Shown: positions 25,501 to 53,361, counted from the first letter of the stretch. The stretch is DNA of 64,000 nt from Rhodothermus sp. (GCA_030950375.1 JAUZRN010000018.1:18629-82628); one strand, 5' to 3'. The notes: generated by a model not told the origin, from the letters alone. Made by a program: numbers and translations.

Positions 25501-26863
25501 AAGTCGTTTCAAGAGCCAGGCTAACAAGCTGCACCCCGGACATACCCGCTCGCACCACCAGGGCTGCCGAGACCTGAACACTTCCATCCGTTGCCGTAAT
25601 TGTGACTGTTTCATCAGCAGCTACTGCCTGGGTAATGATCGTAAAACTCTCCGAAGTGTTACCAGTAGCCACCGTGACACTGCCCGGCAGCTGAACGGCC
25701 GCACTGTTGCTGCTCAGCGTAAACGTCTTTCCCCCGGCCGGAGCGGGTACAGCCAGGATCAGCGTGCCTGTGACCACCTCGCCCCCAACAACTTCCGAGG
25801 GGGCCAGGCTCAACGACACAGTTACACAGGCCTGAGGTGCCGCATTGACCGCCAACTCGGTATCGTTTCCTCCAGAGCGCAAGACGTGATGCGTATCGGT
25901 GCTTCGTAACTCATAAGGCACCAGCTTAGTGGTCTGACTGGTAAGAACCTCACCATTTCGAGTGCGAAACAGGGTAATCTGCATTTGCGTGGCGCCTGAC
26001 TGGAGCACCAGCCCAATCACATCCCCGCAGGGCGCAAATCGCCACGCCGCCCCGCTTACATTACTTATTGGTTGCGCCTGCACCACCTGGCCTGCGGCCA
26101 GATTCACCAGATACCAGCTGACCGAGTTCGGTCCGGTATCCACGACATAAGCCAACGTCCGGTCCTGCGTATCCGGACTGAACCCCCAGCTCATCCCTCC
26201 TACCTTATCGCCGGGCTGTCCTGCTTGATGTAACGAATGACTTGCCTGGTATGCGATGCGACCATCTCGAGCGCTCACGCTCATAAAGACCTGCCCCCGC
26301 CGACCGGTCACGCCATCCCCCGGATCGGTCACGACAACGTAAAGCAGATAATGCCCCTGATCCGAAAAACGAACAACCGAGGGACCTGCCTGGGTTAGCT
26401 CATATCGCTGAACCGGATTGCTGGAACCTTGCTCCAGGTCATACAACAACACACGTTGCTGTTCCGCACTATCTACCCCCCACACTACGAATCGATGGTC
26501 ATCCGGGCTGAATCCCCACCGCAAGTCTGCGCTATTAAACGATACACGTAATACTTCTTCACCGCTGGAAACTCTGACAATCGTCAGCGTCACACTGCTC
26601 CCTCCGCCTCCTTTTACAGACAACGCGTAAAGCCCATTGGGTGAAGTCGCCCGGTTTGCATACTGAGGATCTTCAACCAGTGCCGGCGCCTTCCCTTTAT
26701 CTGGCCGTTTATATGCACCGGTTTCTACACACGCGCAATCGATACCTTCAACCGGAACTGTCTGGGCGGTTGCTATGGATGCAGTGACCAGTCCAATGAG
26801 CAGTACCCCCCTCCGCTGCTTGAATCCAAGAGCTCCCATGACACACCTCCCACATGCATGCAT
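22526..26863 (-). CDS. 1445-aa multidomain T9SS cargo protein; start probably about 26839
   Basis: Signal peptide; WGFSPD propeller-like repeats; four Ig-like repeats (V.GG...GTV.L..PAP); HAF-type repeats (NNYGQVVG, NDHGWIVG, NNRGQFAG, NERGEVLG, NEAGQILA); a DUF11-like domain; and a type A CTD (YPNP..FDILGRRI..SGLYVLRV). Confidence 0.88.
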   Translation of the reverse strand: MHACGRCVMGALGFKQRRGVLLIGLVTASIATAQTVPVEGIDCACVETGAYKRPDKGKAPALVEDPQYANRATSPNGLYALSVKGGGGSSVTLTIVRVSSGEEVLRVSFNSADLRWGFSPDDHRFVVWGVDSAEQQRVLLYDLEQGSSNPVQRYELTQAGPSVVRFSDQGHYLLYVVVTDPGDGVTGRRGQVFMSVSARDGRIAYQASHSLHQAGQPGDKVGGMSWGFSPDTQDRTLAYVVDTGPNSVSWYLVNLAAGQVVQAQPISNVSGAAWRFAPCGDVIGLVLQSGATQMQITLFRTRNGEVLTSQTTKLVPYELRSTDTHHVLRSGGNDTELAVNAAPQACVTVSLSLAPSEVVGGEVVTGTLILAVPAPAGGKTFTLSSNSAAVQLPGSVTVATGNTSESFTIITQAVAADETVTITATDGSVQVSAALVVRAGMSGVQLVSLALETTSVTGGTRISGTVAVNRVVPAGGVLIALSVDHESATVNQTVEIEEGALQATFTVRTEPVRTTTSVTLTATYGASNQTASFLIYPPVIADVQLDPDSVVGGASVSGTVTLSGPAPSGNWTAWLTSDNPQIVELEADSLIFWEGTTQGFFSLQTRGVSQDTTVRVVVSQFIYGLDATIVVRPADLERLTYNPLASPCLLELNGRQRWGAVGGFPIVLDLVLNGEAPPEGAIIQLQSTDPTRVRLTPTVSFPARARQVSITAQTSPVDEPVQADLIAFYRDRKLSETLDLMPAPRQYRVTDIGFAPGTAHNRPEALNNYGQVVGMAGMIPYIWSMQEGLQPLPLPESSTSVRPVDVNDHGWIVGFATSGLSQTQPVLWRNGILKIWDQSGTFVAVNNRGQFAGAGADGIYRWSGEAPERLRLSEVWDGATLSMPYRGLNERGEVLGIIQRATSWARETHGIVWREGERPLFTFRFWTAGATGIPRFNSAGTIVAPLMEAYQYQDQIEAQFAYPILPGYVFMYPTAVTSTGEVVGNARFEDEEKGMVFWRAFWASAERAYALECLVVPEESRRLDGAVDINEAGQILAYTRDDWLTTYGRTVAAEDSTYAYLLTPATLMPADLGVTVSAERSTVVLGDSVVYLFQVTNQGGKDVPAVRLLPVLAVGLEPLSIAATQGSCVVDYGQHLRCALGTITSGASVTVTVGAQPTVPGRYLSYALVSGAGLDTVLANNKAEIELVVQPSGSRTATVTVAADETGTFDLSEAGLLITFTEGSTTDGSLTAQQRFEAPENAQRMIGITVQAPSGAIVADTVLTEWFWTVEAPMLSGMTYTVCLNISSLSQMVDPGTLVITRRATDTEAWRPHDSYARLVGNVVYLCTDGLTAFSEFALATSREMFSVVVTPGAEFGKAPYQISQIYPNPTRRWIHFTLHVREGQPVRIELFDILGRRIAVLYQGKLDAARPYHFRFDGDRWASGLYVLRVVGEQFQTVQRILRL

Positions 26864-40850: not shown

Positions 40851-41607
40851 ATGGCTTCGGCAATGAACAGGGGAATAGGGACAGGATCAAGCGGCAAATA
40901 TACCGGATCCACCCAATCAACTGATCCCCCAGTCGTGCACTGCTACCCACATGCATGTGTCACAGCTCCAGCACCGCATCCCCCTTGTCACGGCCATACA
41001 CATTATACAACCTTCCCAGCGGAAGCCAGTGCTACGACTGCAGCATGAGCTTCGGGCCCGCTACCCACGTAAGCGCAGGCTACACCGATCTCCTCCTCCT
41101 GTAAATCCCAGGTAACCAGGATAATTCATAAGCTTATATTTTTCAGCTTGCTTTATCAAAGGATCTTCGAAGGCATCGCTGGCCTCCTGTCAGCCCTATG
41201 AAAACACCATACACCCCGGTTATCCCGGGTATCCAGCGTGTTAATCCATGGGATTCCTACGTCGTGACCGGCTTTCCTTGACCGTTGTATACCTGCCGTC
41301 GAAAGCCTTCGGGCTGTGCAGTACACGATATTCCCGTGCCGCGAAAATTCGCCGGACTATTTACGGGAAGGTATTCACCGCTCCCTGCGCTTTCCGGGAT
41401 CAGTCAAAGCGTGCGCTGATGGATTATTTGATATATAACTTATGGATTATAACTGATGTCACTTATGACTCAATATATTAAAATTTCTTGATACAATCGG
41501 TTTATTTACGTATCCTTTTTGCAACTGCTTCTCTTTGTAGGAAAAGCATGTCGGGCATTTCCTGAGAAGCAGGTTGGAGTAGTATATCAGATGGGCATCT
41601 ATGGCAA

Positions 41608-43242
41608 ATGCTACGCTGGATTGCATGGAGCTGGGTCGTAGTTTTTACGATAGTGCCCGAGAATGCGCGTCTACAACCGGTTCGCATTAATGGAGGCTTC
41701 TCGGTCTATAGTGAAGCTTACGGCCAGCAGGGATTACGCTTCAATCGTCGCCCTGGTCAGCAGCTGGGAGCCCAGGGTCAGCTTACCCTGACCATTGGCG
41801 GTCAGTTGACGTTGCCGTTTTCTTTTTATCTCTCCACGGACGATGTCGGCTACCAGCTTCCGTTCAACCAATTTGGCGTCAGCCCCCGCTGGCGCTGGAT
41901 ACAGCTCCATGCGGGGTACTTTTCCACTCGACTGACCGAGCTGACGCTGCGGGACGCGCGCCTGCTGGGTGGCGGCCTGTCGCTGACACCCGGACCGTTT
42001 CGACTGGCGTTTGTGCAGGGGCTGACGCAGCGAGCTGTGCCGGCCGATACGTTACGCGACCAACCACCGTTGCTGCGTCAGACGCTCACTGCAGTACAGA
42101 TCGGGGTAGGTGAGGAAGCAGGCTGGCACTTCTGGGTGACAGGGCTTCGCGCCAAAGATACGCCTGACCTGGAGGCATATGAGACCTATGGGGTAGCACC
42201 GCAGGACAATCTGGTCCTTTCGACAGCAGTTGGTCTGGCGCCCCTTCCCGGACGTTTACAGCTCAAAACGGAGGTGGCCGCCTCGGTATATACCCCCGAT
42301 GTGCTGGCTGGTGCGCTGGACTTCAATCGGGCGTTCCAGCAGCTGCAGGAGCTTTTCGGATCGCTGGTAGCGCTCCGGGTCGGCTCTCGCATAGACGTAG
42401 CGGTATCCTCCACGTTGATCCTCCGGCCCGCTCGGACTTTTCAGCTGCAATTGCAGAGTCGATACGTAGGGCCTGGTTTTCGATCGCTGGGAGCTATTCA
42501 GCTGGAAAACGATATTCTGGATCTGCTGGTCGCGCCACGCATCCTGACACGACCGGTCCAGGTGGCTGCTCGCTTTGGGGTACGTCGCAATAATCTGGCT
42601 GGTAGCCGCCTCAGCACACGCCAACGCGGACTGGCCGCCATCAATGCCACGTTTCTGTTCAGCTCGGCCTTCTCTGTAGCAGCCGAGTTCACCAACTTTG
42701 GCGTGCGACTTTCTCGCCGCATCGATACATTGACCGTCTCGAATATTTCGCGGCAATTCGGACTAACGCCTACGCTTCGTCTGCAATCCGGTGCCTGGTT
42801 GCACACGATAACGCTGAGTCTTCGCTATCAGCAGGCCAATGAACGCTACGTCGGCCTGACGCAAAGTCGCCTGACGCGCAATCAGGACCTGATGGTTTCG
42901 CACAGCCTGACGTTCCCACAGCGTCATACGCTGACCTCCAGCTTGAGCCTGAACCGTAGCCTTTTCGACAGCCTGCAGACAACCGTTTTAAACTGGAACG
43001 AATCGCTCACCCTTCAGTGGGGGCGTGCCCGGGCAACCCTTTCCGCGGGCTTGCAACGTTCCCAGGCGCAGTTTACCGACACGGGCTTCATCGGTCGATT
43101 CAATCTTTCCATTCCCGCAGGTCCCCGAGGCCAGCTTCAGCTTCGGCTAAATCTGCGGTCTTATCAATATGGACAGATGCGCCTGGATTCCCGCGGCTAC
43201 ACCGAGGGCACGGCCTACCTTGGCTACAGCTACCGATTTTAA
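41608..43242 (+). CDS. Outer-membrane beta-barrel protein of unknown function
   Basis: Signal-like N-terminus, alternating amphipathic beta-strands throughout, PFNQFGVSPRW..LGGGLSLTPG, and a terminal aromatic beta-signal YLGYSYRF. Confidence 0.8.
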   Translation: MLRWIAWSWVVVFTIVPENARLQPVRINGGFSVYSEAYGQQGLRFNRRPGQQLGAQGQLTLTIGGQLTLPFSFYLSTDDVGYQLPFNQFGVSPRWRWIQLHAGYFSTRLTELTLRDARLLGGGLSLTPGPFRLAFVQGLTQRAVPADTLRDQPPLLRQTLTAVQIGVGEEAGWHFWVTGLRAKDTPDLEAYETYGVAPQDNLVLSTAVGLAPLPGRLQLKTEVAASVYTPDVLAGALDFNRAFQQLQELFGSLVALRVGSRIDVAVSSTLILRPARTFQLQLQSRYVGPGFRSLGAIQLENDILDLLVAPRILTRPVQVAARFGVRRNNLAGSRLSTRQRGLAAINATFLFSSAFSVAAEFTNFGVRLSRRIDTLTVSNISRQFGLTPTLRLQSGAWLHTITLSLRYQQANERYVGLTQSRLTRNQDLMVSHSLTFPQRHTLTSSLSLNRSLFDSLQTTVLNWNESLTLQWGRARATLSAGLQRSQAQFTDTGFIGRFNLSIPAGPRGQLQLRLNLRSYQYGQMRLDSRGYTEGTAYLGYSYRF

Positions 43243-43258
43243 CTGACCAACGGATGCC

Positions 43259-46200
43259 ATGAAGCGCGTTTCGCTGGTGCTACTCGGACTGTGGCTGGGT
43301 CTGCTTCCTGCACAGGCCCAGGAAAATCTGGTCCAGGTGAATATTCTGATTCGCCGTCCGACGGCCATGCCCCGCTCGCTGGATAGCTGGCAGCGGGATC
43401 CTTCCCTGATTCAGGTCCAGGTACGCAATACAAGTTCTCGTCCCTTTGCCGACCTGCGCTTTTCCTTCGTGATCCGAGAAAGCAGTCGTGGCGAAATCCT
43501 GCGTGCTCGCGATGGACATCCGGCCCAGCCATCCTTCACGCTGGGGCCTTTCGAGTCCCGCACGTTCACGTGGGATCAGCTCATTGCCGAATCAGCGGTC
43601 CAGATTGCCCGACCGTTTCGCGAGGAGGTCGTACGCGACGGCATTCCAGAAGGTGACTACGAATTTTGTGCGACTATCCTGGATTTCAGCGTTTCGCCGC
43701 CTCAGGAGGTTGGTTCAACGGGTGCACTCTGCGCAATCTTTCAGGTCGTGGAGCCCGATCCGCCCGAACTTATTTCACCTCCTGACGACGAGACCTTAAT
43801 CACCGACTATCCCGTCTTCTCCTGGGCCTTTACGCCGCCTTCTGGCGTCAGTGGAGTCACCTATCAGCTTACGATCTGGCCTATTTATGCCGGGCAAACG
43901 CCGGTCGATGCCTCGCGCCACAATCGCAGGCTGTTTGCAACTGAGCTGACGACCACCACCTATCGCTACGGACCCGGGGACCCTGCCCTGCTTACCGACC
44001 GCCTGGACCCCCGTGCCATTGGCTACGTCTGGCAGGTACAGAGCTTTCTGGACGGCCAACCCTACGGCCGCGATCAGGGGCGTGGGCGCGGCGTCAGCCA
44101 ACTGGCCACGATCTGGCTACCTGAACGGGCGACCGCGCCAGAGACTCCGCTTCTTGTGCGTACGCTAACGCCCGAGGTGCTGCTGACGCCTGCTTCGAGA
44201 CGCCAGCCCGTCCGCTTCCTGCTGGAAAACATCAGCGGCCAGCCGCTAACGGTCTACCGCTTCCGCACGCGCTGGCAGACTCCAACCGGGGACCGTTCGC
44301 CGGAAGCATCCGAAGGGGATCCCCTTCCGGAAGGTCCGGTCCGACTGGATCCAGGCGAACGCTATACCGTGCAGTTCACGCTCCGTCCTCCGGAAGATCC
44401 AGATTACTTCGAAGACGTAATAACCCGCTTTGGGGACGGCACGTCGCTGACCTTCCCCATTGCCTTCACCTTCTTTGGCGAACAACATGAGCGTGCTTTC
44501 CAAACTGAATCGGACCGACCGGTCCAGTTAACGTACCGCATTCGCCCGGTCGCTCCTCTGCGCGTCCAACTACTCACTTCGTTCATTCGGCTGACACCGG
44601 ATGCGCCCCGGCAGCCTGTCGAGCTTCGGCTGGAAAACCTCGGGGATCAACCCCTTACAGTTACACGCTTCCGTACGACCTGGTATCCTCCAGACGATCG
44701 ACCACCGGAATCGCCCGAAGGAGCAGATGGGGATCCCCTGCCTGAAGGGGACGTCATGCTGGAGCCCGGGGCTACTCACACCGTACGTTTTTATCTCAAC
44801 TTCTCCCGCTCTCCCTTTGAACGACTGGTACGTGAGCTGGGGGATGGGCGGTCCATGTCTTTCCAGATCGCCTTCCTGTTCTTTGCCCGACAATCCGATG
44901 GGCGTATCTTGGAAGCGCCTGCCACCCCGCGTCTGAACGCTGAGCTTACGCTGGGCGAATCGCTTCGCATCCTGGCCATCCATCCGGCTCATCAGGACAC
45001 ATTACCCTGGCTTCCGCAACTGCTGGTGATTCGATGGGTGCCCTTCAACAACAGCTACCGGGGCGTCACCTTCGAGGTAACGGTGCAGGAAGAGGGTACC
45101 GGTCGCGTCTGGACCAACACGCGCCGGCTGAACTGGCCGCGCGGCCCGCTGGCCATCACACCAGGTAGAGAAATCTATCGGGCCAGCATGCATATTGTGA
45201 ACGCAACCGGGCGTCCACCCGAACTGGTGGACTGGGCCAACGAATTCCGGCCGGGACGTCGCTACCAGTGGACCGTCAGCGCCACCTTCCGCAATCCCGA
45301 TGGCAGTACCGAGACGGTCCGTTCGGAGCCCTTTACGTTTGTCCATGGCATGATTGCACCCGAGCTGGGTGTTCCGGCCAACAATGCGACGTTCGCCGCT
45401 GGCGAAAGCATCGCCTTTACCTGGACCCCCCGCCTTTCTCCTCGAGCCCTTTCGCCCGACGTGCTGGCCATTGCCCGCGGCGAAGCGGCTATGTTCTTTG
45501 AAGGCACCACCACCCATCGGGCACGACTCCAGGTAGCCACCAACCCGGACTTCTCTTCAGAAAACCTGATCCTGGAACAACCCTTCGAATTTTCCTTCAC
45601 GGAAACCGACTACGCTGACGTACTGACCGAGCAGAGCTGGCGTCCCGAGCATCGCTGGCGCCCGGGCACCTACTACTGGCGCGTCGTCTGGCTCGATGAG
45701 GATGACCGCCCCTATAGCGCCTCTCCGCTGCGTCAGTTCACTATCGGCGAGACAACGTTTGCCGTGCGAAACTACCAGCCGGCCGATGGCGCTGTAATCA
45801 ATGAGCTAAGCACGCCGTTTTACATTCGCACGACGCGTCCACTGGATCCAGCCCGCCTGCGCTCCGGATGGCTGGAAATCCGCCGCCTCACCCGCGACGA
45901 TGAGTCGCTCCGGGACGTCTTTTCCAATCCAGACCGGCTGGTAGCTCGCCTGGATATTACCCGGCTGGAACCCCATCCAGAGGAGCCGAATGTCTTTCAG
46001 GTGTACACCGGGACACCACCGGCGCCTTATGTGCTCACTTCCCCAGAAGCAGCCCAGTTCGTATGGATCGTCTCGCTCAACCTGAACAATGAGGGGACTC
46101 CTGAGCTACCAGCTCTGGCCGAAAGCTCCCCCACCCGTTTTCGCCTTCGCGAGCCTTCGGCAGCCTGTCTGGCGGCGTGTGAAGAACCGCTCCCCAGTAA

Positions 46201-49200
46201 TCGCACCCTCTCTACAGAACCCGCCTCAGCTTTTGTCAATCGGCAGGTACAGATCGGTAAGTTCTTCCTTCGTATCACCGAGGCCGAAGGCACTGGCAGC
46301 AACCTCTCCGGCCGCGGCATCATCCGAGTTACGCTGGGCAGCACGTTCAACCTGCGCGTACGCTTCGAAAATCTGCAGATCAACACCGACAACCAGGTCG
46401 TCGCTGGCGAGGCATTCGCCGAAGCCGACGGAGTGGTCCCGGACGAGTGGGCTACCCGGTTTGAACGCTTTGTGCCCGACACGGCCCGGGCTCGACGCAT
46501 CCGTGACGTCATCCGAACCGGTCGTAAACTGGCCAGTCTGCTTGGACTCTCTACCGAACCGGTCACGTTGCCGATCGGACTGGATCACGTCGTGGAAGGA
46601 ACCTCATGGGTACTGGCCATTGTGGGGATCCGCTTCCAGCCCACACGCGCCAGCCTGAACGCCCTCATGGACGTGCCGATGCCCTTCCTGGAAACCGGAC
46701 GGTTGGCCCTGGGCGTACGCGACGTGTGCATTAATCCACGTGGATTGGCCGGTGCCTTCCGGCTTGCGCTGGAGCGCTCGCTGCAATTCACGCTTCGGCG
46801 CAGCCCGGACCTGATCCTCCGCGTACTGGGCGAAGCCGACACCGAAGCCGGCGAAACCGGCACCGGTGCTGCCTGGGACTGCACCGGATTTCAGGAGCTG
46901 CAGTTGGCTCTCCAGTTCGAGTTTCCACGCGAATGGTTCGTTCCCATCAATGAAGCCGGCACCGACCGCGGTGACCGGGCGCGTGCTACCTTCCGTTTTG
47001 CGACCCGTAGCATGGACGGATGGCTGATTTCGGGTAACATGGATCGGGCCCGGATCACCGGTACCGACTTTATCTTTGAAGCAGCGGATATTGTCTATGA
47101 CAACGCTACAGATCGCAACCCGTCCGACCTTGTCTTTCCAGAGGGTTACGAAGGTCCTCGCGACAACTCCTGGACCGGCTGGTTTATCCGAAATGCGACC
47201 TTCTTCCTGCCCTCCCAGTTTGGCTCTTTCGAAGACCCCTCAGCCCGCCTGTCCTTTGGAGTGCAGAATGTGCTGATCGATGGCACCGGGCTTACGCTGG
47301 TTGCGCAGGCCAACAACCTGCTCAACCTGGACACCAACCCGGGCAGCCTGGATGGCTGGGCTTTTTCGATTGAGCAGATCCGGGCCGAATGGGTGAGCAG
47401 TTCCTTCCGAGAGGGCCGGATGCAGGGCCAGATCCGTATTCCCATTGGTGAGCCTGCCCTACAATATACTGCCCTGCTGCAATCGGCCGAGGCCTTTGAG
47501 GCCGAGCGAAGGGCCGAAGAGGGCGAGTCGGCCGAAACGGCGCGGCGCGACGAGGCGAGCGACCAGCCGGCGCTTTACTATACGTTTCGCATCGAGCCCC
47601 CGGAAACTTTCCGGGCTACCCTGTTTGAAGCGGCTCAGCTTCAACTGCAGCCTACCTCCCGGATCGAAATCACCAACCGCCCCCTTGAAAACTGCTTTGG
47701 TCGCACGCGGAGCGCTGAATTCCAGGCCTATGCCTGTTTGAACGGTACATTGACGCTGGCGGGCGATCTGGGAGGTATTCCGTTATCGTTCCGGGGAGTG
47801 CAATTCGAAAACTTCGGCATTAGCTCTCGCACGCCTTACTTCAATGCAGGCACCTGGAGCTGGGCCAGTCCGCCGCACTATCTGGGAGGATATGGACCGA
47901 CTGCAGTAGCCCCTGTCCAGGAAAGCACTTCAATGGGTTTTCCGGTTACGGTCGAAGATCTTGGGCTGGAAGTAGGCACGCGGGATGGTGACCCGGCCGC
48001 TGGCCTGCGCTTCGAGCTGGCCGTCCACCTGGGCAGCGACGGAGCTTCCCTGTCGGCAAGAACTACGCTGACCGTCTGGGGACGTCTGCAACGTCCCCCG
48101 CGCGCTCCCATGCGTCCCGCCTTTGCCGGTGTTGAGCTATCGGCTCTTTGCCTCGGCGGCAGCATCAGTGGCGTGGTATCGGTCGGTGAAGACAGTTGTC
48201 TGGAATTCTATCGGGATGATCCGACCTATGGCAATGGGTTTGCCGGAACGCTGAACGTCTCCTTCCTGGAAAGCGTGTCTGTCAGTGCTTCTGGGCGTTT
48301 TGGCGAAGTGGAGGGTTTCAATTACTGGTACATCGATGGCCTCGTAACGCTTGGCGCCAGCGGTGGTATTCCTATCGGCACCACGGGCATGGCCTTCTAC
48401 GGCTTCGGTGGGGGAATCTATTATCGCATGCGTCAGGAAAATCTGCCCGATCCCCAGACATTGACCGGCGGCACCCGCACTGTTCGCTACGTGCCCGATC
48501 GCAATGTCACGCTGGGGCTACGTGCGGCGACCGTGATAGGGACTTCCGGCCGTCCTGAACCTTTCAATGCGGACGTCACCCTGGAAGTCGCCTTTAATAG
48601 CGGCGGCGGCCTCAACCGGATCATCCTGCGCGGCGATGCCTACATGCTGGTTTCCGCCACGGATCGTCCCGAAAATCCCCCGATCACGGGTAGTGTCACC
48701 ATCGATATGAACTTTGCCGAACGTACGTTTGACGCGACCTTCCAGGCACGTGTCCTGCTACGCACCGGTGGGGTGACCGCCGTAGAAGGCCGGGGCGATG
48801 TGCAGCTCCATTTTGCGCCACGCGGCTGGTTTCTGCGGGTGGGGCGTCCCACACCTGAAGCCGACCGCATGCGCTTAAGTGTCATTGCGCTGACCCAGGT
48901 AAACGGCTACCTCTGGGTGGGCAATTGGCCGGAGGTCCCCCGCATGCCAGACCCGCCTCCGCCTGCGCCGCCGATCGTTCGAGCGGATTTTACCGCCGAC
49001 CTGACAGGGCGAGCCTTCCTTTTTGGCGCTTCAACCGGTTTTGAATTCTCTGGGCAATTTCTCATCTTCTACGGTGAGCTTCGCGCCTTCATGGGATTTG
49101 ATCTGGCGCTGATTGACTACGGCCGCGATGCCATGTGTACGCTGGAGGACGGACGTACCATGACGGGCATCGGCATCAACGGCTGGTATGCCCAGGGGCA

Positions 49201-51229
49201 ACTCTATGCCGGTATTACAGCGCGCCTGGGGATCGAAGTCGATCTGTTCTTTGCCAGCGGTCGCTTTGATATCTTCAATGCGGCTGTAGGAGCCACACTG
49301 GGCGGGGGACTCCCCAATCCGACCTATGCCAGCGGAGCTATTTCGGGACGTTATAGCATTCTGGGAGGCGCCGTCAAAGGCACCTTCCGGTATGATTTCG
49401 ATATTGGCGACGTCTGTAAGCCGCTCCCTCCCTCCCCGCTTGAAGGCATCGAGCTGATCACCGATCTGCGTCCGCGGGATGGAGAAAGAGACGTCGATGT
49501 CTTCACCGAGCCAGCCGCTGCCTTCAGTGCCGATCTGGATCGTCCCTTTGTGATGAAAGACGCAGAGGGCCGGCCTCATATTTACCGGCTGCGTACAGAA
49601 GGCATCGTGCTGCGCAAAGATAATGAACGCGGGCCTATCGTCCGAGGTCGCAATGTGGTAACCCCCGAAGGCGACGGCGTCTATTTCCAGCCTGATGAGC
49701 CGCTGGAGTCTTATGCCTGGTACTGGGCCCAGGTAAACGTCTACGCCGAAGAGCTCATTGGCGGACGCGTGGTTGGCCAGCGACGGGTCGGCGACGAGAT
49801 CGTCTACGATGTGGCTGGCGGTCGCTGGGAACCTGTGCGCAATGCCCGGGGTGAGCTCATTCAGGAAACCCGAAGCGTCCGTTTCCAGGCGGGCGTCCGT
49901 CCTGAACAGATTCGCCCGGAGCACGTCCTCTACAGCTATCCGCGCAACCGTCAGCGCTTCTTCCTGCAGGACATGTGTGATCCCGGGCGCATTTATCTGT
50001 CGGAAAACTATCAGTACCTGGCTGAAAATGCAGATATCCTGGTTCGATTCACGCCGGTAGAAGGCGGCGGCACCCCCATCACCGTCGAGGGGCAGCTCTC
50101 CCGAGGTGCTATAACGTTCCCCATTCCGGATCTACAACCAGCCACTTCCTACGTGCTGCAGGTGATTCGGCGTGAGCGCCCCCCGGTTGCCCTGACTGGT
50201 TTTGTGACCGCCTACGCAGCGGAAGCAGCTCGAACGGAGTCGCCACCTCGAACGGACGAAACCGCCACAGAACTTGATGTGCAACTGAGTCCGTCGGTAG
50301 CAGCGCAGGCCAGTCAACCCCGGCTGTTCGAACTTGCACTGCAGTGGCGGCAGCTACGCGGTACGCTGGCTCAGCTGCGGGTACGCACGCTCCCCCGTCC
50401 ACGCGTACAGCCCGGAGAAACGCAGCTGTACCTGTACTATTTCCGCACGAGCCGCTATCGGACGTTGCAGGAAAAATTCGCGCAGCTATCTACCACCAGT
50501 GTGTACCAGTTTGAGCGTGGCCGTCTCTTTGGCGCACCTGTGGAAATGCATGACTTCCAAGTAACCATCACCTGGGCCGATGAGGGCTTCGAGCGCTACG
50601 ACCTCGAGCGACAACACCTGCAGGGCAGACGCTGGCGCGAGGCGCTGCTGACCTACGGCATCAACTGGCAGGACGACTGGATGCGTCGTTTTGCACGGCC
50701 TTACATCTATGAACCTTTAAATATCCTGCGTCGCCGGGGCATCTCAGCCATTTCGTTCTACCATATGGCACCGCGCACAGCCCTTGAACTGATCCGCCGG
50801 CAGAGTCTGCTGGAAAGCCCGCTCCAGGACAGCGAACTCATGCCCCCTCCTTCTGTCGAGGAGCGGGTAGCCCGTGCCAGCACTCCCAAAGGCATCCTTT
50901 CCTGGTACTCCAGACAGTCTACTATTCGCATTCCGCCCCCGCCTCCTCCGCAACTGGTCTTCCGGTACCGATTCCCCACGCTGGCGTATCTGGATCATCG
51001 GATAGTGCAGAATCAGGTGGCCGCGCTGGTCAGTACCGATCGCTGGCGCTCGCTCTCTGAAGAGGACCGACGCCGACTCTGGCTGGCGGGCTTCTCCTCG
51101 TTTGTACGCCCCTATGGCCGGCTGTCCATCTGGTTTGGCTATCCCACCTGCGAGATGCTCGACGTAGGCATTCCAGGGGTAGAACTGTTCTTTGAGACCG
51201 GCAATCGGCCACCCCGAAACTTCCGTTAA
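43259..51229 (+). CDS. 2656-aa secreted multidomain protein (TANFOR-like N-terminus, Ig/FN3-like domains, long Gly/aromatic beta-rich core)
   Basis: Signal peptide (AQA|Q); VQVNILIRRP..IQVQVRN..DYEFC N-domain; PPELISP..FSW and TYYWRV Ig-like motifs; FYGFGGGIYYRM core; no YPNP-type CTD. The TANFOR resemblance is from memory, not a search. Confidence 0.72.
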   Translation: MKRVSLVLLGLWLGLLPAQAQENLVQVNILIRRPTAMPRSLDSWQRDPSLIQVQVRNTSSRPFADLRFSFVIRESSRGEILRARDGHPAQPSFTLGPFESRTFTWDQLIAESAVQIARPFREEVVRDGIPEGDYEFCATILDFSVSPPQEVGSTGALCAIFQVVEPDPPELISPPDDETLITDYPVFSWAFTPPSGVSGVTYQLTIWPIYAGQTPVDASRHNRRLFATELTTTTYRYGPGDPALLTDRLDPRAIGYVWQVQSFLDGQPYGRDQGRGRGVSQLATIWLPERATAPETPLLVRTLTPEVLLTPASRRQPVRFLLENISGQPLTVYRFRTRWQTPTGDRSPEASEGDPLPEGPVRLDPGERYTVQFTLRPPEDPDYFEDVITRFGDGTSLTFPIAFTFFGEQHERAFQTESDRPVQLTYRIRPVAPLRVQLLTSFIRLTPDAPRQPVELRLENLGDQPLTVTRFRTTWYPPDDRPPESPEGADGDPLPEGDVMLEPGATHTVRFYLNFSRSPFERLVRELGDGRSMSFQIAFLFFARQSDGRILEAPATPRLNAELTLGESLRILAIHPAHQDTLPWLPQLLVIRWVPFNNSYRGVTFEVTVQEEGTGRVWTNTRRLNWPRGPLAITPGREIYRASMHIVNATGRPPELVDWANEFRPGRRYQWTVSATFRNPDGSTETVRSEPFTFVHGMIAPELGVPANNATFAAGESIAFTWTPRLSPRALSPDVLAIARGEAAMFFEGTTTHRARLQVATNPDFSSENLILEQPFEFSFTETDYADVLTEQSWRPEHRWRPGTYYWRVVWLDEDDRPYSASPLRQFTIGETTFAVRNYQPADGAVINELSTPFYIRTTRPLDPARLRSGWLEIRRLTRDDESLRDVFSNPDRLVARLDITRLEPHPEEPNVFQVYTGTPPAPYVLTSPEAAQFVWIVSLNLNNEGTPELPALAESSPTRFRLREPSAACLAACEEPLPSNRTLSTEPASAFVNRQVQIGKFFLRITEAEGTGSNLSGRGIIRVTLGSTFNLRVRFENLQINTDNQVVAGEAFAEADGVVPDEWATRFERFVPDTARARRIRDVIRTGRKLASLLGLSTEPVTLPIGLDHVVEGTSWVLAIVGIRFQPTRASLNALMDVPMPFLETGRLALGVRDVCINPRGLAGAFRLALERSLQFTLRRSPDLILRVLGEADTEAGETGTGAAWDCTGFQELQLALQFEFPREWFVPINEAGTDRGDRARATFRFATRSMDGWLISGNMDRARITGTDFIFEAADIVYDNATDRNPSDLVFPEGYEGPRDNSWTGWFIRNATFFLPSQFGSFEDPSARLSFGVQNVLIDGTGLTLVAQANNLLNLDTNPGSLDGWAFSIEQIRAEWVSSSFREGRMQGQIRIPIGEPALQYTALLQSAEAFEAERRAEEGESAETARRDEASDQPALYYTFRIEPPETFRATLFEAAQLQLQPTSRIEITNRPLENCFGRTRSAEFQAYACLNGTLTLAGDLGGIPLSFRGVQFENFGISSRTPYFNAGTWSWASPPHYLGGYGPTAVAPVQESTSMGFPVTVEDLGLEVGTRDGDPAAGLRFELAVHLGSDGASLSARTTLTVWGRLQRPPRAPMRPAFAGVELSALCLGGSISGVVSVGEDSCLEFYRDDPTYGNGFAGTLNVSFLESVSVSASGRFGEVEGFNYWYIDGLVTLGASGGIPIGTTGMAFYGFGGGIYYRMRQENLPDPQTLTGGTRTVRYVPDRNVTLGLRAATVIGTSGRPEPFNADVTLEVAFNSGGGLNRIILRGDAYMLVSATDRPENPPITGSVTIDMNFAERTFDATFQARVLLRTGGVTAVEGRGDVQLHFAPRGWFLRVGRPTPEADRMRLSVIALTQVNGYLWVGNWPEVPRMPDPPPPAPPIVRADFTADLTGRAFLFGASTGFEFSGQFLIFYGELRAFMGFDLALIDYGRDAMCTLEDGRTMTGIGINGWYAQGQLYAGITARLGIEVDLFFASGRFDIFNAAVGATLGGGLPNPTYASGAISGRYSILGGAVKGTFRYDFDIGDVCKPLPPSPLEGIELITDLRPRDGERDVDVFTEPAAAFSADLDRPFVMKDAEGRPHIYRLRTEGIVLRKDNERGPIVRGRNVVTPEGDGVYFQPDEPLESYAWYWAQVNVYAEELIGGRVVGQRRVGDEIVYDVAGGRWEPVRNARGELIQETRSVRFQAGVRPEQIRPEHVLYSYPRNRQRFFLQDMCDPGRIYLSENYQYLAENADILVRFTPVEGGGTPITVEGQLSRGAITFPIPDLQPATSYVLQVIRRERPPVALTGFVTAYAAEAARTESPPRTDETATELDVQLSPSVAAQASQPRLFELALQWRQLRGTLAQLRVRTLPRPRVQPGETQLYLYYFRTSRYRTLQEKFAQLSTTSVYQFERGRLFGAPVEMHDFQVTITWADEGFERYDLERQHLQGRRWREALLTYGINWQDDWMRRFARPYIYEPLNILRRRGISAISFYHMAPRTALELIRRQSLLESPLQDSELMPPPSVEERVARASTPKGILSWYSRQSTIRIPPPPPPQLVFRYRFPTLAYLDHRIVQNQVAALVSTDRWRSLSEEDRRRLWLAGFSSFVRPYGRLSIWFGYPTCEMLDVGIPGVELFFETGNRPPRNFR
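44147..44962 (+). repeat. Tandem duplication of a 136-aa domain within the giant protein
   Basis: Units start at 44147 and 44555: RQPVRFLLENISGQPLTVYRFRT..GDPLPEG vs RQPVELRLENLGDQPLTVTRFRT..GDPLPEG. Confidence 0.88.
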
Positions 51230-51240
51230 CCGAACCGGCT

Positions 51241-53361
51241 ATGCGTACGCGACATTTCTGCATGGGCTATCTGCTGCTGGGCCTGTGGAGTATCGCCGGC
51301 CTGCCGGCACGGTCTCAGCAACCCGACACCTTGACCGCCGATACCCTCCGGGTTCCTTCGCTGGCCGTGCAGGCCTGGTCTGACGGGGCCCGCGTGGTAC
51401 TCCGATGGGCACCCGCTTCGTTTCTCGCCTGGGATCATGGCAATGCCGTGGGTTACCATGTGGAACGCACACGTATCAATCCCCAGGAACCCCCGTCCGC
51501 CCCGCTCACCTACGACCGACTGACGTCCCAACCCCTTCGCCCCTGGCCGCTGGAAACCTGGCGTCAACGCATTCCGAATCCTGAAGCACGTCCGCAGGCC
51601 GCCATCGCCGCTCAGATGCTCTATGGTACCCCTGCGCCCATTCAGGCCCGTAACCCCTTCGAAGCGGCCCAGCTACGCGCAGCCGAGCAGGAAAATCGCT
51701 TCAGCTTTGCCCTGTTTGCGGCCGATCTCGACTCCCTGGCTGCCGAAGGGCTGGGCCTGCGTTACGAAGATGCCACGGTTGAACCTGGCGCCACGTACAT
51801 CTATCGGGTTTTTGCAGCGGAACCCCATCCCTCGCTGCGTCTCGACACGGCCTACGTGGTGGTAACCGTGAACCCAACACCACCCGCCACGCTTGACTTC
51901 GCGATCGAAGTGGAAGCTGGAGACGGTCAGCTGCGGCTCTGCTGGGATCCCCGGCTGGCTACTTATGCCTTCACCGCCTACGTGGTCGAGCGATCCGAAG
52001 ACGGCCAGCAGTATCGCCTCATGACAGAAACGCCTCTGGTCCAGCTCGAAACCAACGCCACACTGGCCGAAAATCGCAGTCTCTGTTTTACCGATACGAC
52101 TACCGTCAATTACCGGCGCTACTTCTATCGGATCTATGGCATCGATGCCTTTGCCCATCGCTCACGCCCCCTTGAAGTCATTGGAATGTCCCGAGACAGG
52201 ACCCCACCTCCAGCCCCGGTGCTTGAAGCAACCGAACACGTGCGCGAAAGCACAGTACGATTGCGCTGGCGTCTCGATAATCCTTCGCCAGATCTGGAAG
52301 GGTTCTTTATTGGCATCTCCAACAGCCCGGACGGTCCCTTTGAGATTGGCGAGCAGCTTCCGCCTTCAGCCCGTGAGGCGACCGACAGCCGTGCAATCTC
52401 CGGCATCAATAACTATTACATTGTATTGGCGGTTGACACGGCAGGGAACCTCTCCTCTTCCATGCCGCACTACGTGCATCTGATCGACTCGATTCCACCT
52501 GCGCCTCCAACCGGACTGATCGCTCAAGTGGACACCACAGGCATCCTGACCCTTCGCTGGCGATCCAATCAAGAGCCTGACCTGCTGGGCTACCGCGTCT
52601 ATCGGGCCAACCAGCTCGACCATACCTTCACGCTGGAAACCGGCTTCCCCCTGACCGACACCGTCTTTGTGGACACCCTCAGCCTGAATACGCTGACCGA
52701 GGCCATCTATTACCGGGTGGTAGCCCTGGACCGCAATTACAATCCTTCGGCGCCTTCCGAACCGGTACAGGTACTTCTCCCCGATCAGATACCGCCCGTT
52801 TCTCCCCTCTTTACCCGCGTCACACCAACCGACTCCAGCATTATCCTCCACTGGATTCCCAGCAGTAGCCCGGACGTGGTGCGCGTCTACCTTTACCGCA
52901 AACGCCCCAATGAAATCCTCTGGCATGAAATCGCTGTACTGGACCCAACCACCAGCCGCTACGAAGACACCACGGTTCAGCCGGAACGCCGCTATTACTA
53001 CACCCTGCGTGCGGAAGACGACGCCGGAAACCTCTCCCGACCAGCTCCCCCGGTCCAGGCCCGTCCGTATGTCAAAACCTTACGTCCCCCTGTTACCCGC
53101 CTGCGGGCACGCTATGATGCCCGCCAACGGGCCATCCAGCTCACCTGGTCCTACACCCATGCCCGACCGCACTGGTTTGTCGTCTTTCGAGCCGTGGAAG
53201 ACCAGCCTCTCCGTCGTTATCAATCGGCCGGTCGGTTTACACAATTTCTGGATATGGACCTGATCGGCCCCGGCACCTACCGCTATGCCGTACAGGTTTA
53301 TTTTGAAGACGGAGGCATTTCGCCCCTTAGCGAACCGGTCACGGTGGTTGTAGAAGAGTAG
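51241..53361 (+). CDS. Secreted fibronectin type III multi-domain protein (706 aa)
   Basis: Signal peptide and about six FN3-like modules (VVLRW..YIYRV, LRLCW..YFYRI, VRLRW..YYIV, LTLRW..GYRVYR..YYRVVA, ILHW..YYYTL, QLTW..YRYAV); no T9SS CTD. Confidence 0.85.
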   Translation: MRTRHFCMGYLLLGLWSIAGLPARSQQPDTLTADTLRVPSLAVQAWSDGARVVLRWAPASFLAWDHGNAVGYHVERTRINPQEPPSAPLTYDRLTSQPLRPWPLETWRQRIPNPEARPQAAIAAQMLYGTPAPIQARNPFEAAQLRAAEQENRFSFALFAADLDSLAAEGLGLRYEDATVEPGATYIYRVFAAEPHPSLRLDTAYVVVTVNPTPPATLDFAIEVEAGDGQLRLCWDPRLATYAFTAYVVERSEDGQQYRLMTETPLVQLETNATLAENRSLCFTDTTTVNYRRYFYRIYGIDAFAHRSRPLEVIGMSRDRTPPPAPVLEATEHVRESTVRLRWRLDNPSPDLEGFFIGISNSPDGPFEIGEQLPPSAREATDSRAISGINNYYIVLAVDTAGNLSSSMPHYVHLIDSIPPAPPTGLIAQVDTTGILTLRWRSNQEPDLLGYRVYRANQLDHTFTLETGFPLTDTVFVDTLSLNTLTEAIYYRVVALDRNYNPSAPSEPVQVLLPDQIPPVSPLFTRVTPTDSSIILHWIPSSSPDVVRVYLYRKRPNEILWHEIAVLDPTTSRYEDTTVQPERRYYYTLRAEDDAGNLSRPAPPVQARPYVKTLRPPVTRLRARYDARQRAIQLTWSYTHARPHWFVVFRAVEDQPLRRYQSAGRFTQFLDMDLIGPGTYRYAVQVYFEDGGISPLSEPVTVVVEE

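Follow-up and report, generated by a model that had tools for sequence, protein, structure and literature searches.

Three co-oriented genes in a 64,000-nucleotide stretch of Rhodothermus sp. DNA (referred to here as the window) encode an outer-membrane (OM) barrel, a giant protein with predicted Sec export and a chain of FN3 domains. The trio exemplifies a cell-envelope module that is widespread in the Bacteroidota–Rhodothermota–Ignavibacteriota group and has not been described, and it matches no described system. TANFOR proteins, as published, are polymorphic toxins exported by Sec, and the route by which they need to leave the cell is undescribed (PMC7073777); the trio is a candidate that may supply the missing export or anchoring machine for them.

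Operon layout and predicted proteins

The genes lie on the plus strand at 41608-43242 (barrel, 544 aa; ORF call), 43259-51229 (giant, 2656 aa; ORF and translation) and 51241-53361 (FN3 protein, 706 aa; ORF call), with gaps of 16 and 11 bp. Coordinates, lengths, strand and gaps were confirmed as exact, and by their anatomy the three genes form one operon. The AT-rich upstream region of roughly 750 bp that the first-pass annotation described corresponds to a 757-bp presumed promoter spacer (40851-41607, unstranded), recognised by base composition and the lack of an ORF, in which GC content is 0.48 (41000-41499) compared with about 0.60 around it. The spacer holds no ORF of 80 aa or longer in an ORF scan and no Rfam family in an Rfam search. 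Sigma-70-like matches within it do not exceed the expectation from shuffled sequence, nor did scans for promoters and terminators yield more matches than shuffled sequence did. A search for expression evidence of co-transcription returned no RNA runs containing this sequence. The window genes that flank the trio (GH97, an HD-domain protein and a MalK-type ABC transporter) are unrelated to it, and they are not kept beside it in the five distant barrel loci described below. Signal-like N termini can be read from the sequences of all three proteins, as had been proposed, that of the barrel being the weaker.

An AF2 model of the first protein, built from 25 sequences (pLDDT 85.2, pTM 0.73), is all-beta over residues 25-543 and bears out its earlier identification as an OM barrel. 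The modelled barrel is large, with 24-26 strands and no plug, POTRA or other extra or periplasmic domain; a low-confidence helix at residues 2-14 precedes the strands, which begin at residue 25. The C-terminal beta-signal (YSYRF) that had been noted is present (...TAYLGYSYRF, 43210-43239, plus strand), and the family consensus retains both the terminal F and the pattern of Y residues. By sequence searches the barrel family is undescribed: there are 27 homologues, down to 25% identity, and the sequence has no match in Pfam, NCBIfam or PDB sequences. Its Foldseek neighbours are generic large barrels only (FimD/PapC, TonB-dependent transporters and MtrB). The best TMq, 0.49, is to MtrB, and the top matches FimD and PapC have TMq values of 0.29-0.47 at 10-12% identity. 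The most conserved stretch in the 25-sequence alignment, aa 77-98 (41836-41901, plus strand; motif QQPFNQFG.SPR..W), has invariant N87, P93 and W97 and nearly invariant P85, Q88 and G90. In the model it is mostly non-strand, with sparse strands and lower pLDDT, and it is a candidate partner-contact loop.

The giant starts with a signal peptide that is predicted, by reading the sequence, to be cleavable (MKRVSLVLLGLWLGLLPAQA, followed by QE), and the same reading finds no membrane anchor. Identity to its homologues is 72-91% for those in relatives of Rhodothermus and 28-37% for those from other phyla. Four parts can be distinguished, all on the plus strand: the TANFOR-like head, within an N-terminal module kept in all giants (aa ~21-290, 43319-44128); lineage-variable Ig-like repeats (aa ~300-974, 44156-46180; homologue alignment and sequence reading); an all-beta core whose fold has no known match (aa 975-2075, 46181-49483; profile search and AF2); and a conserved tail (aa 2076-2656, 49484-51226; alignment to homologues). 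We infer the Ig-like character of the second part from its beta-rich repeats, among them a tandem duplicate (aa ~300-430 and ~435-560, sequence reading); this region has no Pfam match, and three homologues (P0005-P0007) lack it, with no counterpart to window aa 276-968 in the alignment. Both large proteins had been described as built from Ig/FN3 modules. That description holds for the FN3 protein and for only about the first third of the giant, and fails for the ~1100-aa core, which is non-repetitive, all-beta and without a family match.

On the evidence of profile comparison, this core defines an unnamed family of very large size. An exhaustive profile search returned 3008 clusters (at 50% identity) with E ≤ 1e-3, of which 1794 reach E ≤ 1e-30, with matches in at least 545 species genomes, all unnamed; a word-indexed homologue search, with 10-20 matches, had missed most of the family, the size of which the exhaustive search revealed. 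Cysteines at core positions 183, 234, 986 and 1079 are invariant. An AF2 model from a five-sequence alignment was poor (pLDDT 49.8) and consisted almost entirely of long beta-hairpins; its Foldseek matches (LptD, porins and ApoB) were dropped, with TM ~0.1 on an unusable model. The family profile has no match among PDB sequences, and 23 members searched against Pfam at E ≤ 10 gave weak Big_5 alone. We also considered two ideas about the core, an RHS-like shell of repeats and a second barrel homologous to the first; neither is supported, because hhalign found neither internal repeats in a 130-sequence core profile compared with itself nor a relation between that profile and the barrel. The tail comprises a weak Big_5-like Ig domain (Big_5 matches weakly in 10 of the 23 core-family members) and then a conserved C-terminal region. 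It aligns to the very end with the homologues P0008 and L001, and the same region is kept in core-only proteins. The window giant's tail has no toxin domain, CTD or Pfam or NCBIfam match of any kind.

The third protein, with a signal-like N terminus by sequence reading (...LWSIAGLPARS, followed by QQ), is formed by a split FN3 domain (aa ~40-210) with an ~85-aa insertion and then five tandem FN3 domains (aa 213-704). Pfam fn3 matches at aa 528-606, and the protein aligns in tandem to RPTP and fibronectin structures. Parsing with a self-built FN3 model gives an identical six-domain layout in homologues from other phyla.

Conservation, split loci and the TANFOR-like head

That similar trios occur elsewhere was confirmed by a gene-neighbourhood survey, in which they were seen across Rhodothermota, Ignavibacteriota and Bacteroidia. 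The giant and the FN3 protein lie downstream in 5/5 distant barrel homologues, which were picked solely by the length of their sequence records, and barrel-side synteny is also present in L008 and L009. Where the giant is a single gene (fused loci) and the locus is centred on it and fully flanked, the barrel is found in 16/17 cases and the FN3 partner in 17/17. The conserved families of the fused loci are the barrel, giant and FN3 protein only; a ~1000-aa family, tried as a fourth conserved gene, occurs in few related loci and is non-adjacent. The barrel directly adjoins the TANFOR-bearing ORF in 24/35 loci with room for it, and this adjacency persists though gene order within the trio differs from locus to locus; some loci have no barrel within 10 kb. 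The module is usually single-copy. Because homologues of all three genes co-occur in distant phyla, sequence comparison indicates that the trio is a conserved unit, associated far beyond chance. The statement in the first-pass annotation that such trios have no assigned function also stands, as we found none in the literature searched.

In many Bacteroidia the giant is split, with the TANFOR piece separate from a core–FN3 pair. FN3 partner length is kept in both arrangements, with medians of 714 aa (fused) and 690 aa (split). Small, signal-less ORFs that look immunity-like often come after the TANFOR piece, and in one split locus a gene for an ADP-ribosyltransferase (ART) toxin follows the TANFOR gene. 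Directly after the core–FN3 pair, 35 Bacteroidia loci have a SprB-repeat protein, with a type A CTD in those checked. This position right upstream of SprB-repeat genes raised the idea that the pair is SprC–SprD, the operon being sprCDBF. The idea was rejected on annotation, which argues against it: in F. johnsoniae SprD (Fjoh_0980) is annotated as PorP/SprF and SprC (Fjoh_0981) is a predicted lipoprotein (SPII).

The head of the giant is a divergent TANFOR-like domain with a conserved pair, C137/C158, followed by an FN3-like domain (motif DPP.L..P...F.WTP). For window aa 1-200, TIGR02542 is the best match, a weak one (E 0.017, 15 bits against a cut-off of 67, aa 108-141). The same model is matched by 28/51 family N termini at E ≤ 0.01 (best 1e-21), same-architecture relatives score up to 62 bits (L054), and a model made from TANFOR-positive split-locus heads alone finds the window head at 3e-12 (aa 126-262). 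By transitive homology the earlier label 'TANFOR-like' is probably right.

A Sec signal peptide is present in ~87% of the TANFOR class (Jana, Salomon & Bosis 2020, PMC7073777), and one is predicted from sequence for the window giant. TANFOR proteins carry polymorphic C-terminal toxins that include nucleases and anti-eukaryotic toxins; their neighbourhoods are Fn3-rich and enriched in SprB repeats and Por_Secre_tail, and T9SS is present in >95% of TANFOR genomes; T9SS export was proposed as a guess (PMC7073777). Our search found no later literature on the export route. In the table of Jana et al., canonical TANFOR genes lie immediately beside genes for a ~450-aa PKD lipoprotein and for a protein of 750-800 aa (PMC7073777). 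A 3078-aa TANFOR protein is listed in a vesicle proteome of Tannerella forsythia, with a CELLO prediction of periplasmic (PMC10682907).

Candidate routes and functions

We tentatively prefer a reading whose chances we put somewhat short of even, in which the barrel would be a dedicated OM portal or anchor for the giant, the TANFOR head would recognise or plug the barrel and the FN3 protein would be a stalk or escort. The first-pass interpretation is supported in part, its barrel-mediated export and its independence from T9SS being proposals. In the preferred reading BAM would insert the barrel into the OM, where it would then act as both portal and anchor. The TANFOR-like head (~145 aa, with its conserved Cys pair) would be the barrel-recognition or lumen-plugging element, with a role like that which TPS domains have in two-partner secretion, or LptE within LptD, and the remainder of the giant would be displayed on the cell surface. 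The FN3 protein would serve as a rigid, fixed-length stalk or spacer, or else as a periplasmic escort. We counted in favour of the portal or anchor that the nearest barrel folds are barrels with a protein in the lumen (FimD/PapC and MtrB), together with the operon anatomy, the confident plug-less barrel model, synteny, barrel–TANFOR adjacency, head homology, CTD absence, the split-locus neighbours, the need of published TANFOR toxins to leave the cell (PMC7073777) and the listing of a TANFOR protein among T. forsythia vesicle proteins (PMC10682907). Counted against it were the TANFOR score of the window head (15 versus 67 bits), the loci that are barrel-less within 10 kb, the unusable core model (pLDDT 49.8, Foldseek TM ~0.1) and the PKD lipoprotein and 750-800-aa neighbours of Jana et al. 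A ~1100-aa core with conserved Cys pairs may also be hard to pass through a barrel, which argues against a portal.

T9SS-dependent assembly, in which the giant, the FN3 protein or both would cross the OM via SprA with an unrecognised signal and the barrel would be a PorP/SprF-like carrier or anchor, seems to us unlikely. Type B cargo is held by a cognate barrel (PMC12635249), and the SprB/Por_Secre_tail-rich neighbourhoods and T9SS content of TANFOR genomes also fit such a route, as do the SprB-repeat proteins, with CTD in those checked, right after the FN3 gene in 35 loci. The window genome itself encodes a T9SS cargo: the one placed by the first-pass annotation at 22.5-26.9 kb is ORF 22526-26863, whose match to Por_Secre_tail (E 8.5e-6, 26.4 bits), just below the 27-bit cut-off, served as a positive control. 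However, neither the giant nor the FN3 protein matches a type A (PF18962/TIGR04183) or type B (TIGR04131) CTD at E ≤ 0.1 in Pfam and NCBIfam, in line with the original claim on type A, fused loci including the window have no adjacent CTD protein, and the barrel has no PorP/SprF or PorV Pfam match. The PorP/SprF and PorV carriers are small barrels, and one of 24-26 strands looks much larger.

We likewise doubt a periplasm-facing or envelope-spanning complex like LptDE, MtrAB or TAM, with the lumen of the barrel plugged from within by a domain of the giant or of the FN3 protein, most of the giant in the periplasm and a role in OM homeostasis or lipid/polymer transport. A plug-less barrel of this strand number is sized like LptD and MtrB, the latter giving the best TMq; the module is usually single-copy and kept across phyla; the constant FN3 length suits a periplasmic ruler; and the T. 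forsythia TANFOR protein is predicted to be periplasmic (PMC10682907). The core, a long beta-hairpin meander, has weak local matches to LptD, porins and ApoB, but these carry no weight because TM is ~0.1 on a low-confidence model. No AsmA, TamB or LptD/OstA match was found at any threshold in the three proteins, or in the 23 core-family members at E ≤ 10. The giant has a predicted cleavable signal peptide and no membrane anchor, and relatives carry this head on nucleases and anti-eukaryotic toxins, proteins that need export (PMC7073777). A very improbable reading makes the window giant one of the published TANFOR polymorphic toxins and its neighbours incidental. The giant shares with that class a TANFOR-like head, large size and predicted Sec export, but L001, P0008 and the core-only proteins show its C-terminal region to be conserved and not polymorphic, Pfam and NCBIfam find no toxin domain in it, the next gene, 11 bp on, encodes the conserved FN3 partner and not an immunity protein, and the neighbours are kept across phyla.

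The immunity-like ORFs of split loci, the ART gene and the published TANFOR toxins together point to the module being an adhesion or antagonism apparatus at the cell surface. The form found in Rhodothermus, with no toxin or immunity gene, is probably a structural or adhesive basal form. A broader proposal, possible but doubtful in our estimate, is that barrel, core and FN3 protein would make up an unrecognised OM secretion/display pathway of the FCB group, a new type that exports TANFOR-headed proteins, including the Bacteroidia toxins, independently of T9SS; the TANFOR module would provide the signal that targets proteins to this pathway, and the operon in Rhodothermus would be a fused version reduced to the minimum. 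The trio and its relatives offer a concrete candidate for TANFOR export, consisting of a large barrel, a core family of ~3000 clusters (50% identity) and a fixed-length FN3 protein, and, the Pfam fn3 domain match aside, these families have no Pfam family, name or solved relative. If the barrel–TANFOR link is functional, common unannotated envelope biology of the Bacteroidota group becomes testable and could bear on surface adhesion, interbacterial antagonism and OM protein export. Even if the trio proves to be structural, it defines three protein families that are new and follow a clear rule of co-occurrence.

Comparison with known systems

The trio resembles the TANFOR polymorphic toxins in having a large Sec-exported protein whose conserved N-terminal module precedes an FN3-like domain, and in neighbourhoods rich in Fn3 and SprB-repeat/CTD genes. 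It differs in that the window giant scores 15 bits on TIGR02542 and has a conserved tail; the polymorphic C-terminal toxin and downstream immunity gene are absent in the window, the downstream gene being the FN3 partner. Jana et al. 2020 (PMC7073777) describe no barrel, core family or fixed FN3 partner.

LptD–LptE, MtrB–MtrA and FimD/PapC are similar in barrel size, have a lumen that encloses or passes a protein and rank first among the structural neighbours, although at TM values of only 0.3-0.49 and with no sequence relation to the trio barrel. Unlike ushers, the trio barrel has no plug or N- and C-terminal domains and no PapD-like partner, and the three proteins match no usher or chaperone family in Pfam or NCBIfam; unlike LptD it has no jellyroll or LptE partner, and unlike MtrB no cytochromes. 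T9SS type B cargo (SprB–SprF) occurs in the same phyla, with a dedicated barrel gene beside a giant surface protein, and Bacteroidia versions of the module adjoin SprB-repeat genes; the trio differs in having no type A or B CTD and a barrel without a PorP/SprF match.

Two-partner secretion and CDI (TpsB/CdiB with TpsA/CdiA) share with the trio the logic of a barrel gene beside that of a giant beta-rich Sec passenger with a conserved N-terminal targeting domain, and relatives have polymorphic C-terminal toxins and immunity genes. The T5bSS, however, combines an Omp85-type 16-strand barrel and POTRA with a TPS domain, whereas the trio barrel has 24-26 strands and no POTRA/Omp85 homology, the giant has no TPS domain or FHA repeats in Pfam or NCBIfam, and the trio adds an obligatory FN3 component.

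A three-gene operon encoding a barrel, a giant and an FN3 protein

The operon encodes, on the forward strand, a barrel protein of 544 amino acids (41608–43242), a giant of 2656 amino acids (43259–51229) and an FN3 protein of 706 amino acids (51241–53361), and the co-orientation and the 16- and 11-bp gaps reported in the first-pass annotation hold. The AT-rich region of about 750 bp described 5′ of the operon corresponds to a 757-bp spacer (40851–41607) in which GC content falls to 0.48, compared with about 0.60 nearby. This spacer contains no Rfam family, and sigma-70-like sites in it do not outnumber those in shuffled sequence. The neighbouring genes are unrelated to the trio: a GH97 protein and an HD-domain protein are encoded before it, and a MalK-type ABC ATPase after it in convergent orientation. 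The nearest relatives are from Rhodothermus, with 86–89% identity for R. profundi proteins. Signal-like N-termini, claimed for all three products, are clear for the giant and the FN3 protein and weaker for the barrel, which does end in the proposed beta-signal (...LGYSYRF), with a terminal F that is kept across the barrel family. The reported lack of a T9SS C-terminal sorting domain (CTD) was borne out, as neither the giant nor the FN3 protein has a type A or type B match at E ≤ 0.1. The T9SS cargo noted at 22.5–26.9 kb was recovered as a reverse-strand ORF (22526–26863) for a protein of 1445 amino acids that contains DUF11 and, at 26.4 bits (slightly below the cut-off), a Por_Secre_tail CTD, so that T9SS cargo is encoded in this genome about 15 kb from the operon.

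Comparison with homologues divides the giant into an N-terminal module, a variable Ig-like region, a core (residues 975–2075) and a conserved tail. The N-terminal module (about 290 amino acids) is kept in every relative, with C137 and C158 invariant. The Ig-like region varies by lineage and contains a Rhodothermus-specific tandem duplicate of a unit of about 130 amino acids (window 44156–44938, giant residues ~300–560; LTP...RQPV...LEN..GQPLTV.RFRT.W...); the region that holds it is missing from three homologues of 1965–1969 amino acids (P0005–P0007). The core and tail have no relatives in Pfam, NCBIfam or the PDB, even when 23 members were scanned at E ≤ 10, and the sole match in the scan of core-family members was a weak Big_5 Ig domain downstream of the core. 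An AF2 model of the core, for which five sequences were aligned, is of poor quality (pLDDT 49.8) and consists almost entirely of long beta-hairpins; its structural neighbours were set aside, with a TM of only ~0.1 (Foldseek). Using a 130-sequence core profile, we detected neither internal repeats nor a relationship to the barrel. In the FN3 protein, an insertion of about 85 amino acids interrupts the first FN3 domain, and five tandem FN3 domains follow; this six-FN3 layout recurs in homologues from other phyla. Six such domains would span an estimated 20–25 nm.

The barrel was modelled with confidence (AF2, 25 homologues, pLDDT 85.2) as unbroken beta-strand across residues 25–543, with 25–26 strand elements and neither a plug nor a POTRA nor any further domain. 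Its sequence has no match in Pfam, NCBIfam or the PDB, and its structural neighbours in the PDB are generic large barrels only, namely FimD/PapC ushers, TonB-dependent transporters and MtrB (Foldseek; TMq 0.3–0.49, 8–12% identity). The best-conserved segment (residues 77–98, QQPFNQFG.SPR..W) is mostly non-strand in the model. Some homologues are longer (750–886 amino acids; L005:6112–8532, L009:5131–7791 and L067:84–2561, locus-internal coordinates here and below), with an N-terminal extension of about 290–340 amino acids that has no Pfam match and might form a plug or periplasmic domain missing from the window barrel.

Conservation of the trio across phyla

Five distant barrel homologues (25–32% identity), selected solely by the length of available sequence, are all followed by a giant (1925–2477 amino acids) and an FN3 protein (roughly 700). 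The trio layout is also kept in Rhodohalobacter and Rhodothermales MAG loci that were found via giant homologues, with giants of 3.7–3.9 thousand amino acids. In an exhaustive profile search, 3008 clusters (50% identity) matched the core at E ≤ 1e-3, and 1794 of them still did so at the stricter E ≤ 1e-30; no cluster that was checked has a name. When a single genome was scanned for each species, the core was present in at least 545 species, including Rhodothermales, Ignavibacteriota, Kapaibacterium and many Bacteroidia (Flavobacterium, Aquimarina, Chitinophaga, Fulvivirga and Marivirga among them).

We surveyed the neighbourhoods of the best 80 of these at least 545 loci using purpose-built models. 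Among fused loci, in which one giant carries both the N-terminal module and the core, those with at least 2.5 kb on each side (n = 17) all have the FN3 partner and, with one exception, the barrel (16 of 17), which upholds the first-pass claim that such trios recur. The barrel, the giant and the FN3 partner are the only families conserved in fused loci within the best 80, and gene order differs (barrel–giant–FN3, giant–barrel–FN3 or barrel–FN3–giant). A locus labelled as Thiohalospira sp. MAG (Gammaproteobacteria; L036) has ORF coordinates identical to, and scores nearly identical to, those of a Bacteroidales MAG (L035), and is probably mis-binned Bacteroidales DNA. Two scaffolds of Chitinophaga filiformis (L076 and L078) carry a core–FN3–SprB-repeat locus whose coordinates and scores are the same on both; the locus was either duplicated recently or entered the assembly twice.

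Split loci and the link to TANFOR proteins

The best 80 also include 51 split loci, all from Bacteroidia, in which the core forms its own protein of about 1537 amino acids without the N-terminal module (the head). In 30 of 32 flanked loci the FN3 partner comes after the split core gene. Upstream of the core gene, many split loci have the barrel and a second giant, which carries the head together with roughly the first 90 residues of the core profile. The TANFOR model TIGR02542 matches 28 of 51 head N-termini at E ≤ 0.01 (best E 1e-21) and scores 62 bits at L054, a fused-type locus. TANFOR is the best match of the window head too, but at just E 0.017 and 15 bits; a model from split-locus heads alone nevertheless recovers it at 3e-12, so by sequence comparison it is TANFOR-like through transitive homology rather than a scoring member of TIGR02542. 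Of 35 loci with room, 24 have the barrel directly adjoining the TANFOR-bearing ORF.

TANFOR proteins carry polymorphic C-terminal toxins, and SprB-repeat, Fn3, PKD and Por_Secre_tail domains are over-represented among the genes around them (Jana, Salomon and Bosis, PMC7073777). The listed neighbours of canonical Flavobacteriaceae TANFOR genes are a PKD lipoprotein and a protein of 750–800 amino acids (Jana et al.). Export of TANFOR proteins by the T9SS is those authors' guess only (PMC7073777), and we found no later work on the export machinery in the literature searched. A proteome table of Tannerella forsythia vesicle preparations lists both a 3078-amino-acid TANFOR protein and a 606-amino-acid FN3-domain protein (PMC10682907).

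The split loci agree with this published picture. Small ORFs without a signal peptide often lie 3′ of the TANFOR gene (for example, L066:8274–8966, L052:8109–8813 and L074:8591–9076), placed like the immunity genes of polymorphic toxin loci, and at L070 an ORF for an ADP-ribosyltransferase (ART; L070:7337–8731) comes after the TANFOR-bearing giant. In 35 Bacteroidia loci (L035–L089), a gene for a SprB-repeat protein directly follows the FN3 partner (for example, L057:16538–20938, L066:16732–21078 and L079:16481–20947); several of the proteins checked, of about 1450–1490 amino acids, carry a type A T9SS CTD. The window operon has no SprB-repeat neighbour, small signal-less ORFs or ART gene. A secreted family of about 314 amino acids with weak HEAT-repeat matches, encoded immediately upstream of the core-only gene in 20 split loci (for example, L040:8809–9753, L066:8938–9906 and L071:8786–9727), may be an additional component of the split form.

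Proposed function and comparison with known systems

Known barrels of about 24–26 strands hold a partner (LptD–LptE, MtrB–MtrA) or pass folded domains (ushers), and by analogy a plug-less barrel of this size is unlikely to stand open. The operon encodes three co-inherited secreted proteins, among them a large, empty barrel and a giant with a TANFOR-like head, and has no CTD; in relatives it is genetically linked to exported toxins and also to a surface protein. We propose that the barrel would serve the giant specifically, as both portal and anchor: the head (about 145 amino acids) would dock in or at the barrel, the remainder of the giant would be displayed outside the cell and the six-FN3 protein would act as a fixed-length stalk or escort. 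This proposal as a whole is tentative, with a somewhat less than even chance of being right.

The same three secreted products could form a periplasmic or envelope-spanning complex, an arrangement that we consider unlikely. T9SS-dependent assembly, with the barrel acting as a PorP-like carrier, would draw on the T9SS cargo in the window and the CTD-bearing SprB-repeat proteins of Bacteroidia loci; neither the giant nor its FN3 partner has a CTD match, and we regard such dependence as rather improbable. To a further reading, a stand-alone toxin, we give very little credence; the tail of the window giant is conserved rather than polymorphic, which argues that this giant is not itself a toxin. 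Equivalence of the operon to SprC/SprD, also considered, is unlikely: the supplementary table of PMC12045153 lists Fjoh_0980 (labelled SprD) among PorP/SprF-type barrels and assigns to Fjoh_0981 a lipoprotein-type signal for signal peptidase II (SPII).

Judged from the sequences, TANFOR is the only known family involved besides the generic FN3 fold, and it covers the head alone. We found no description of the barrel, core and FN3-partner families, or of their co-occurrence, in the family libraries or literature searched. The operon proteins fall outside T5b, chaperone-usher, T9SS cargo, T9SS carrier, LptD and AsmA/TamB. Given that the operon belongs to none of these classes and that its families are undescribed in the literature searched, we regard the system as new in kind, with a putative function; the proposed barrel–giant mechanism has none of the defining features of two-partner secretion or CDI, but its logic is similar to theirs.
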